From NCBI RefSeq assembly GCF_009931435.1, contig NZ_CP043414.1: a stretch of 64,000 bases of DNA, one strand, 5' to 3'. Below, in pieces: positions 53,830 to 54,831 of this stretch. Position 1 is the stretch's first letter, and every line of letters starts with the position of its first letter. This DNA is from Escherichia coli. GTDB lineage: Bacteria > Pseudomonadota > Gammaproteobacteria > Enterobacterales > Enterobacteriaceae. Both the position numbers and the translations under genes were made by a program. The notes beneath the pieces are model-generated. The model saw only the letters and a program-made list of their open reading frames with translations. It was not told where the DNA came from and searched no databases.

Positions 53830-54831
53830 ATGAGTAAAGTTGGTATTAACGGTTTTGGTCGTATCGGTCGACTGGTGTTGCGTCGATTACTTGAAGTCAA
53901 AAGCAACATAGACATTGTCGCTATTAATGATCTCACTTCCCCAAAAATTCTCGCCTACCTGCTGAAACATGATTCAAACTACGGACCGTTCCCCTGGAGC
54001 GTTGATTTTACGGAAGATTCACTTATCGTTGACGGGAAAAGTATCGCGGTTTACGCCGAAAAAGAGGCTAAAAATATTCCATGGAAAGCGAAAGGCGCAG
54101 AAATCATTGTCGAATGTACTGGCTTTTATACCTCCGCCGAGAAATCGCAGGCGCACCTTTATGCTGGTGCGAAGAAGGTGTTGATTTCCGCCCCTGCCGG
54201 TGAAATGAAAACCATCGTTTATAACGTCAATGACGACACACTGGATGGCAACGACACCATTGTTTCCGTGGCGTCATGCACCACTAACTGTCTTGCACCG
54301 ATGGCCAAAGCCTTGCACGACAGTTTCGGAATAGAAGTCGGCACGATGACGACCATTCATGCCTATACTGGCACCCAGTCACTGGTGGATGGCCCGCGAG
54401 GTAAAGATCTACGCGCTTCACGTGCAGCGGCAGAAAATATCATTCCCCACACTACAGGCGCGGCAAAAGCCATTGGTCTGGTGATCCCAGAACTGAGCGG
54501 CAAACTGAAAGGTCATGCGCAACGCGTACCCGTGAAAACAGGTTCGGTGACTGAACTGGTGTCTATTCTTGGAAAAAAAGTGACTGCCGAAGAGGTGAAC
54601 AACGCGCTTAAAAACGCGACAAACAATAACGAGTCATTTGGTTATACCGATGAAGAAATAGTCTCTTCTGATATCATTGGCAGCCATTTCGGGTCGGTGT
54701 TTGATGCCACGCAAACCGAAATTACCGCCGTGGGCGATTTACAGCTGGTGAAAACGGTCGCCTGGTATGATAACGAATATGGCTTCGTCACGCAGCTTAT
54801 TCGCACCCTCGAAAAATTCGCTAAACTCTGA
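53830..54831 (+). CDS. gapC: Glyceraldehyde-3-phosphate dehydrogenase C (intact reading frame)
   Basis: 333-aa uninterrupted ORF; NAD-binding NGFGRIGR and active-site SCTTNCLAP motifs. Confidence 0.88.

Follow-up and report, generated by a model that had tools for sequence, protein, structure and literature searches.

The gapC locus of Escherichia coli raises the question of whether a strain outside K-12 carries a functional second glyceraldehyde-3-phosphate dehydrogenase (GAPDH) at the position where K-12 is annotated with a pseudogene. We addressed this question for the window, by which we mean the whole stretch of 64,000 nucleotides of E. coli DNA analysed here (assembly GCF_009931435.1, contig NZ_CP043414.1). 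An intact gapC outside K-12 and an active second GAPDH have both been published already, and the central fact about this gene has been on record since the 1990s. A published text cites a 1998 study according to which environmental isolates have gapC intact and laboratory strains have it mutated, and the same text describes a gapC promoter that is active in fresh water; another review repeats the adaptive claim. A clinical study treats gapC as an E. coli species-marker target for qPCR and cites the full-length O157:H7 entry P58072 together with a 1996 description of the gene. Our literature search returned nothing relevant on the in vivo function of the intact gapC of BL21 or EHEC, the term 'gapC' matching mostly plant or Clostridium entries.

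The preliminary description of this DNA had named gapC as a complete frame of 333 residues, and the open-reading-frame listing of the window agrees with it exactly.

53830..54831, + strand: gapC coding sequence, a type I NAD-dependent GAPDH according to the models (open reading frame, TIGR01534, Pfam, and PDB entry 7C5F at 329/333 residues)

The frame consists of an ATG start, 333 codons and a TGA stop, and a Shine–Dalgarno sequence, AGGAG (53819-53823), lies 6 nt ahead of the ATG. The protein scores 444.6 bits against the NCBIfam model for type I GAPDH (TIGR01534), above the curated cut-off of 367.2, with residues 3-325 of 333 aligned. Pfam places Gp_dh_N over residues 3-102 (E = 9e-36) and Gp_dh_C over residues 155-313 (E = 5e-58). 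An open frame of this kind is far beyond chance.

The gene lies between cybB, which is divergent, and aldA, which is convergent, with trg and ydcF close by, and this is the position of gapC in K-12. The annotated order in K-12 is trg, hokB, a ydcA-like gene, cybB, gap, aldA, ydcF and hrpA, and the open reading frames of the window agree with it. In nearly all of 5409 E. coli genomes gapC is matched at 95.4-99.7% nucleotide identity and 100% coverage. The full-length GapC of other E. coli, such as that of O157:H7 (UniProt P58072), has the same length and start and is annotated as a type I glyceraldehyde-3-phosphate dehydrogenase. Judged by position, identity and frame, the window gene is the E. 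coli gapC orthologue, corresponding to the K-12 locus b1416/b1417.

At the same locus the RefSeq annotation of K-12 gives gap as a pseudogene, 'frameshifted; internal stop', which confirms what the preliminary description had said of a split gene in K-12. The alignment with K-12 gapC, proposed there as a way of locating the lesion, contains 40 substitutions and one indel (95.9% nucleotide identity) and gave two lesions: K39* and, in a run of seven A (A7), a deletion of 1 bp. The first is an A>T change at gene nt 115 that turns Lys39 from AAA to TAA; the second shortens the run at gene nt 744-750 by one A and so puts the codons after 249 out of frame.

53944..53946, + strand: codon 39, AAA (Lys) in the window, where K-12 and strains related to it have the stop TAA (alignment with K-12)
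54573..54579, + strand: A7 homopolymer (gene nt 744-750), whole in the window and A6 in K-12 (alignment)

In the window codon 39 is AAA, the A7 run is whole and no stop occurs before codon 334; by its open frame the window gene is assigned to the functional class of alleles and not to the pseudogene class. The K-12 gene (gapC_1 and gapC_2) lies, like the window gene, between cybB and aldA, and the upstream regions of the two are conserved at 98%, but it carries the TAA at Lys39, the A6 run and an R18G change, all three of which are missing from the window gene.

No more than five sites separate the K-12 allele from the intact allele closest to it. In strain HS-01 gapC has the stop without the frameshift, which indicates that the stop arose before the frameshift. 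The double lesion is also found in natural human isolates and is thus a trait of a clade rather than a laboratory artefact. We also note that the K39* clade has R18G (window equivalent 53881-53883; position 3052 in the related locus L001) at a position where Arg or Lys occurs in 121 of 121 close orthologues; the change reflects either decay once the gene had been inactivated or hitch-hiking.

The preliminary description had also stated that the NAD-binding and catalytic-cysteine motifs are intact, and the motif G8-F-G-R-I-G13, Asp34, Cys150 and His177 are indeed all present.

53851..53868, + strand: Rossmann motif G-F-G-R-I-G, codons 8-13, including Arg11 and Ile12 (sequence; both residues are NAD contacts in the paper on the 7C5F series)
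53929-53931, + strand: Asp34, NAD-specificity residue (sequence; a named contact in the same paper)
54277..54279, + strand: Cys150 (TGC), catalytic, within ASCTTNCL (sequence; Cys in 97/98 diverse GAPDHs)
54358..54360, + strand: His177 (CAT), catalytic (sequence; His in 97/98 diverse GAPDHs)

The closest solved structures are those of the PDB 7C5F series, whose protein is identical to window GapC at 329 of 333 residues (98.8%). These structures, of an enzyme called EcGAPDH1 (PDB entries 7C5F, 7C5H, 7C5P and 7C7K and a series of mutants; Biomolecules 2021, PMC8615399), belong to an active NAD-dependent GAPDH with a Km for glyceraldehyde 3-phosphate (G3P) of 0.73 mM. Its activity is abolished in the C150A mutant and is about 8000-fold lower in H177A (PMC8615399). 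The same paper gives Arg11, Ile12, Asp34, Lys78 and Ser120 as contacts to NAD and Thr180, Thr182 and Arg232 as contacts to phosphate; it never uses the name gapC, and EcGAPDH1 is tied to gapC by sequence. EcGAPDH1 has 333 residues and the same catalytic, NAD and phosphate residues as window GapC, which differs from it by four substitutions (Ile29 for Val, Tyr111 for Asp, Asn262 for Gln and Asn265 for Thr). The GxGxxG motif, Arg11, Ile12, Asp34, Ser120, Thr180, Thr182, Arg232 and Thr209-Gly210 are all found in window GapC and are invariant in 121 close orthologues, as is Lys78, the remaining NAD contact of the structure paper. The preliminary description had set against its own reading the case of an inactivating substitution at a catalytic residue; the alignment holds none, D111Y not being counted as such.

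Among 13 intact gapC alleles dN/dS is 0.038, with 71 polymorphic codons that are synonymous only and 10 that change the amino acid, and orthologous GapC proteins at 87-96% identity are found in E. albertii, Citrobacter, Klebsiella, Enterobacter and their relatives. The suggestion that the strain may have a functional second GAPDH thus gains strong support from the enzymology and crystal structures of an active enzyme of 98.8% identity and from a dN/dS of about 0.04, and on these comparisons the window gene is most likely functional.

In our view, the window gene is very probably the ordinary, ancestral, intact gapC, encoding a cytoplasmic, NAD-dependent, phosphorylating type I GAPDH that is a paralogue of GapA and would serve as a sigma-S-driven auxiliary enzyme. 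Cys150 would attack glyceraldehyde 3-phosphate, as shown for the 98.8%-identical protein, and by the same comparison His177 would aid the transfer of hydride to NAD+ held by the Rossmann domain through Arg11, Ile12, Asp34, Lys78 and Ser120. Phosphate at the Ps and new-Pi sites (Thr180, Thr182 and Arg232) would then cleave the thioester to give 1,3-bisphosphoglycerate, again by analogy with that protein. Transcription would start from the cybB-gapC intergenic region and depend largely on sigma-S, to judge from K-12 and its 98%-identical upstream region, and this dependence would make GapC an auxiliary GAPDH of stationary phase, starvation or fresh water rather than one of the growth phase. The loss of gapC in K-12, and in roughly a fifth of the E. 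coli sequenced, would be recent, beginning with the nonsense change at Lys39 and followed by slippage in the A7 run, and the lineage of the window would never have gained these lesions.

The region expected to hold the gapC promoter and the end of the transcription unit are as follows.

53642..53829, + strand: divergent intergenic region between cybB and gapC, 188 nt, which should hold the gapC promoter (conservation, K-12 data)
54839..54862, strand not assigned: GC-rich hairpin in the gap that separates gapC from the convergent aldA (folding)

The mean column identity of the intergenic region is 98% across seven E. coli strains including K-12, and a ChIP-seq peak of sigma-S RNA polymerase in K-12 falls inside it. 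The K-12 gapC_1 transcript was 5.6-fold RpoS-dependent in glucose-limited chemostats, and gapC was up-regulated in K-12 along with gluconeogenic genes in slow-growing PTS-minus strains. A scan of 53500-55000 for the sigma-70 consensus gave one site, inside cybB, against 1.9 expected from shuffled sequences. The scan being uninformative, the gapC promoter is inferred from the ChIP and transcript data of K-12, from which expression of gapC during starvation or in stationary phase may be expected in the window strain. Downstream, the centroid fold of the hairpin is a 9-bp stem of -19.3 kcal/mol, and the surrounding 50-nt stretch has a minimum free energy of -20.3 (z = -3.69 against shuffles). The hairpin is plausibly, and likely, an intrinsic terminator shared by the two genes, with a weak U tract; a consensus terminator scan missed it, its T run being short.

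The distribution of intact and lost alleles bears on how much the open frame means. Of 5426 complete E. coli genomes, 5417 contain gapC. Counted as exact haplotypes, the K-12 TAA form (73-mer) occurs in 1152 of the 5426 genomes (21%) and the K-12 A6 form (90-mer) in 1035 (19%); the corresponding AAA 73-mer of the window is exact in 2908 genomes, and the K-12 haplotype with A7 restored is exact in 1426. The frameshifted length of 1001 bp was found in 12 of 59 full-length matches taken as an evenly spaced sample of the ranking. In a small sample of 1002-bp alleles from across the ranking, 11 of 12 are annotated as intact, the exception being HS-01, which has the stop only. ECONIH1 has a separate 1-bp deletion at nt 418 (window equivalent 54247), and in SCPM-O-B-7615 an IS1A-associated truncation follows about nt 199 and cuts aldA as well. 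At least four independent inactivations of gapC are therefore observed, namely K39*, A7>A6 layered on K39*, the deletion at nt 418 and the IS1A truncation (seen in the related loci L001, L003-L008 and L015). Many lineages can clearly dispense with the gene, and in E. coli the intact form is both ancestral and in the majority. Being that, and being already published, an intact gapC tells little about the window strain in particular.

Within E. coli the window gene is 95-99.7% identical to other gapC genes, and its allele belongs to a minority class, with an identity of at least 99% in only 16 of 5417 records. Over the 5.3-kb locus (52074-57400) none of the 5,426 complete RefSeq E. coli genomes is more than 98.8% identical to the window, and the window lineage is accordingly unrepresented among them. 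Over 7002 bp (50830-57831) the window has a match at 100% identity in the draft contig VTMS01000008.1 (GCA_009899175.1). An origin from Shigella or outside E. coli, raised by the complete-genome match of less than 99% over the 5.3 kb, was rejected, the exact-match proteins being labelled E. coli. We also note that dS between the gapC lineages of E. coli reaches 0.19, with a mean of 0.11, and that 97 gapC records fall at 90-95% identity (for example ECONIH1, 93.7%). Such values point to allele classes that have diverged deeply, or to recombination, at the gapC locus.

An alternative is that the frame is intact and the gene physiologically silent or dispensable in the window strain, a conditionally useless paralogue not yet disabled, with effectively no second GAPDH. 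The recurrent independent inactivations (K39* in 1152 genomes, A7>A6 in 1035, nt 418 in ECONIH1 and the IS1 case in SCPM-O-B-7615) are what might be cited for it, as are the lack of a promoter consensus above background and the private, non-conservative substitution in the window allele. A dN/dS of 0.038 and Enterobacteriaceae orthologues of 87-96% identity are nevertheless unlike a silent gene. The upstream region and the Shine–Dalgarno sequence are conserved, in K-12 the promoter still binds sigma-S polymerase and still drives transcription, and the published text mentioned above reports promoter activity specific to an environment. We consider this alternative unlikely.

The private substitution itself concerns codon 111.

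54160..54162, + strand: codon 111, TAT (Tyr) in the window against GAT (Asp) (allele panel, 71-mer search)

Asp111 is found in all 19 other alleles of the panel, including one that is only 3 nt from the window allele, and Tyr111 is the only one of the four differences from EcGAPDH1 that is private to the window lineage. Of the complete genomes, 5324 have a match to the window 71-mer around codon 111, and in no case is it exact. The exact window GapC protein does occur in public assemblies, in 19 contigs of the cluster listing and in at least 24 contigs, from several isolates, among 45 index blocks. A sequencing error at Tyr111 was rejected since the exact protein recurs in many independent assemblies and VTMS01000008.1 is 100% identical over the 7002 bp compared.

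The column at position 111 is variable, with Asp, Thr, Glu, Gln and Ser in the close orthologues and with Asp, Lys, Glu, Thr, Arg, Gln, Ser, Ala, Asn and Gly as the ten most frequent residues across 98 diverse GAPDHs. Tyr is absent from the column in 120 close orthologues and is outside the ten commonest residues of the diverse set. Residue 111 is not among the listed catalytic, NAD or phosphate contacts of the solved structure. The position is surface-like and not catalytic, its variability being typical of a solvent-exposed site.

It might still be argued that D111Y cripples folding, tetramer assembly or cofactor binding, which would make the window allele a missense pseudogene. The change from Asp to Tyr is radical, Tyr is missing at this column from the close orthologues and from the ten commonest residues of the diverse set, Tyr111 is absent from the 5324 genomes that match the 71-mer, and the residue lies nine positions before the NAD-contacting Ser120. 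The column is, however, among the family's most variable, with acidic, basic, polar and small residues all tolerated; residue 111 makes no listed contact; and a protein that recurs unchanged in several isolates, in 24 contigs or more, has lasted within a lineage. On the high variability of the column and the lack of a listed contact, we reject D111Y as an inactivating lesion and think a missense pseudogene very improbable.

Window GapC shares its fold, domains and catalytic chemistry with GapA and with Epd/GapB, but it scores below the models specific to each of them: 302.4 bits against the GapA model NF011954/PRK15425 (cut-off 662), and 275.6 and 279 bits against the Epd models TIGR01532 and PRK13535 (cut-offs 530.55 and 539). 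It likewise falls below the model for ArsJ-associated GAPDH, NF033735, with 304.6 bits against a cut-off of 450, and no arsJ gene adjoins the window gapC, which is flanked by cybB and aldA. By these scores it is a third paralogue distinct from GapA and Epd, and among solved structures it is nearer to the GAPDHs of Gram-positive type. Another specificity, for example that of an erythrose-4-phosphate dehydrogenase like Epd or of an ArsJ-partner GAPDH, has sizeable sub-threshold scores in its favour (276-279 bits for Epd and 305 bits for the ArsJ-associated type) but is scarcely credible given that these lie far below the cut-offs (530-539 and 450) while the general GAPDH-I equivalog model is passed, that the flanks are cybB and aldA without arsJ, and that an almost identical enzyme shows a high rate of G3P oxidation with NAD+.

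With the window gene taken as an ordinary intact gapC, K-12 is the exception and not the rule, and beyond correct annotation the weight of the finding is small. About three quarters of E. coli strains, the window strain among them, would keep an intact second GAPDH of a demonstrably active type. Metabolic models and conclusions on gene essentiality based on K-12, with its one GAPDH and a gapA that is essential on sugars, may fail to hold for these strains. The two-step recent loss in one clade, the other independent losses and the strong purifying selection elsewhere may interest studies of gene loss and niche adaptation. A more far-reaching reading is that gapC is conditionally useful and repeatedly lost according to lineage, with the Tyr111 enzyme perhaps altered in stability or regulation, as part of adaptation to environmental as against host-associated niches. 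We hold this to be improbable; if it were true, the state of gapC could mark ecological specialisation within E. coli, or even bring it about.

Three minor observations concern the region upstream of gapC. The cybB frame (53111-53677, - strand) has 188 residues in the open-reading-frame listing, from an upstream ATG, and 176 in its RefSeq form, the start of which is equivalent to 53641; the difference is an ambiguity of start codon only. In MFDS1022581, the closest relative by gapC, the spacer between trg and cybB is 337 bp shorter and has no annotated hokB. Rfam places two RNAs in this spacer in the window, the sok antitoxin RNA of a hokB/sokB type I toxin-antitoxin system (52326-52477, + strand, 114 bits) and the small RNA RydC (53037-53100, + strand, 90.5 bits), both of which are known features of K-12.
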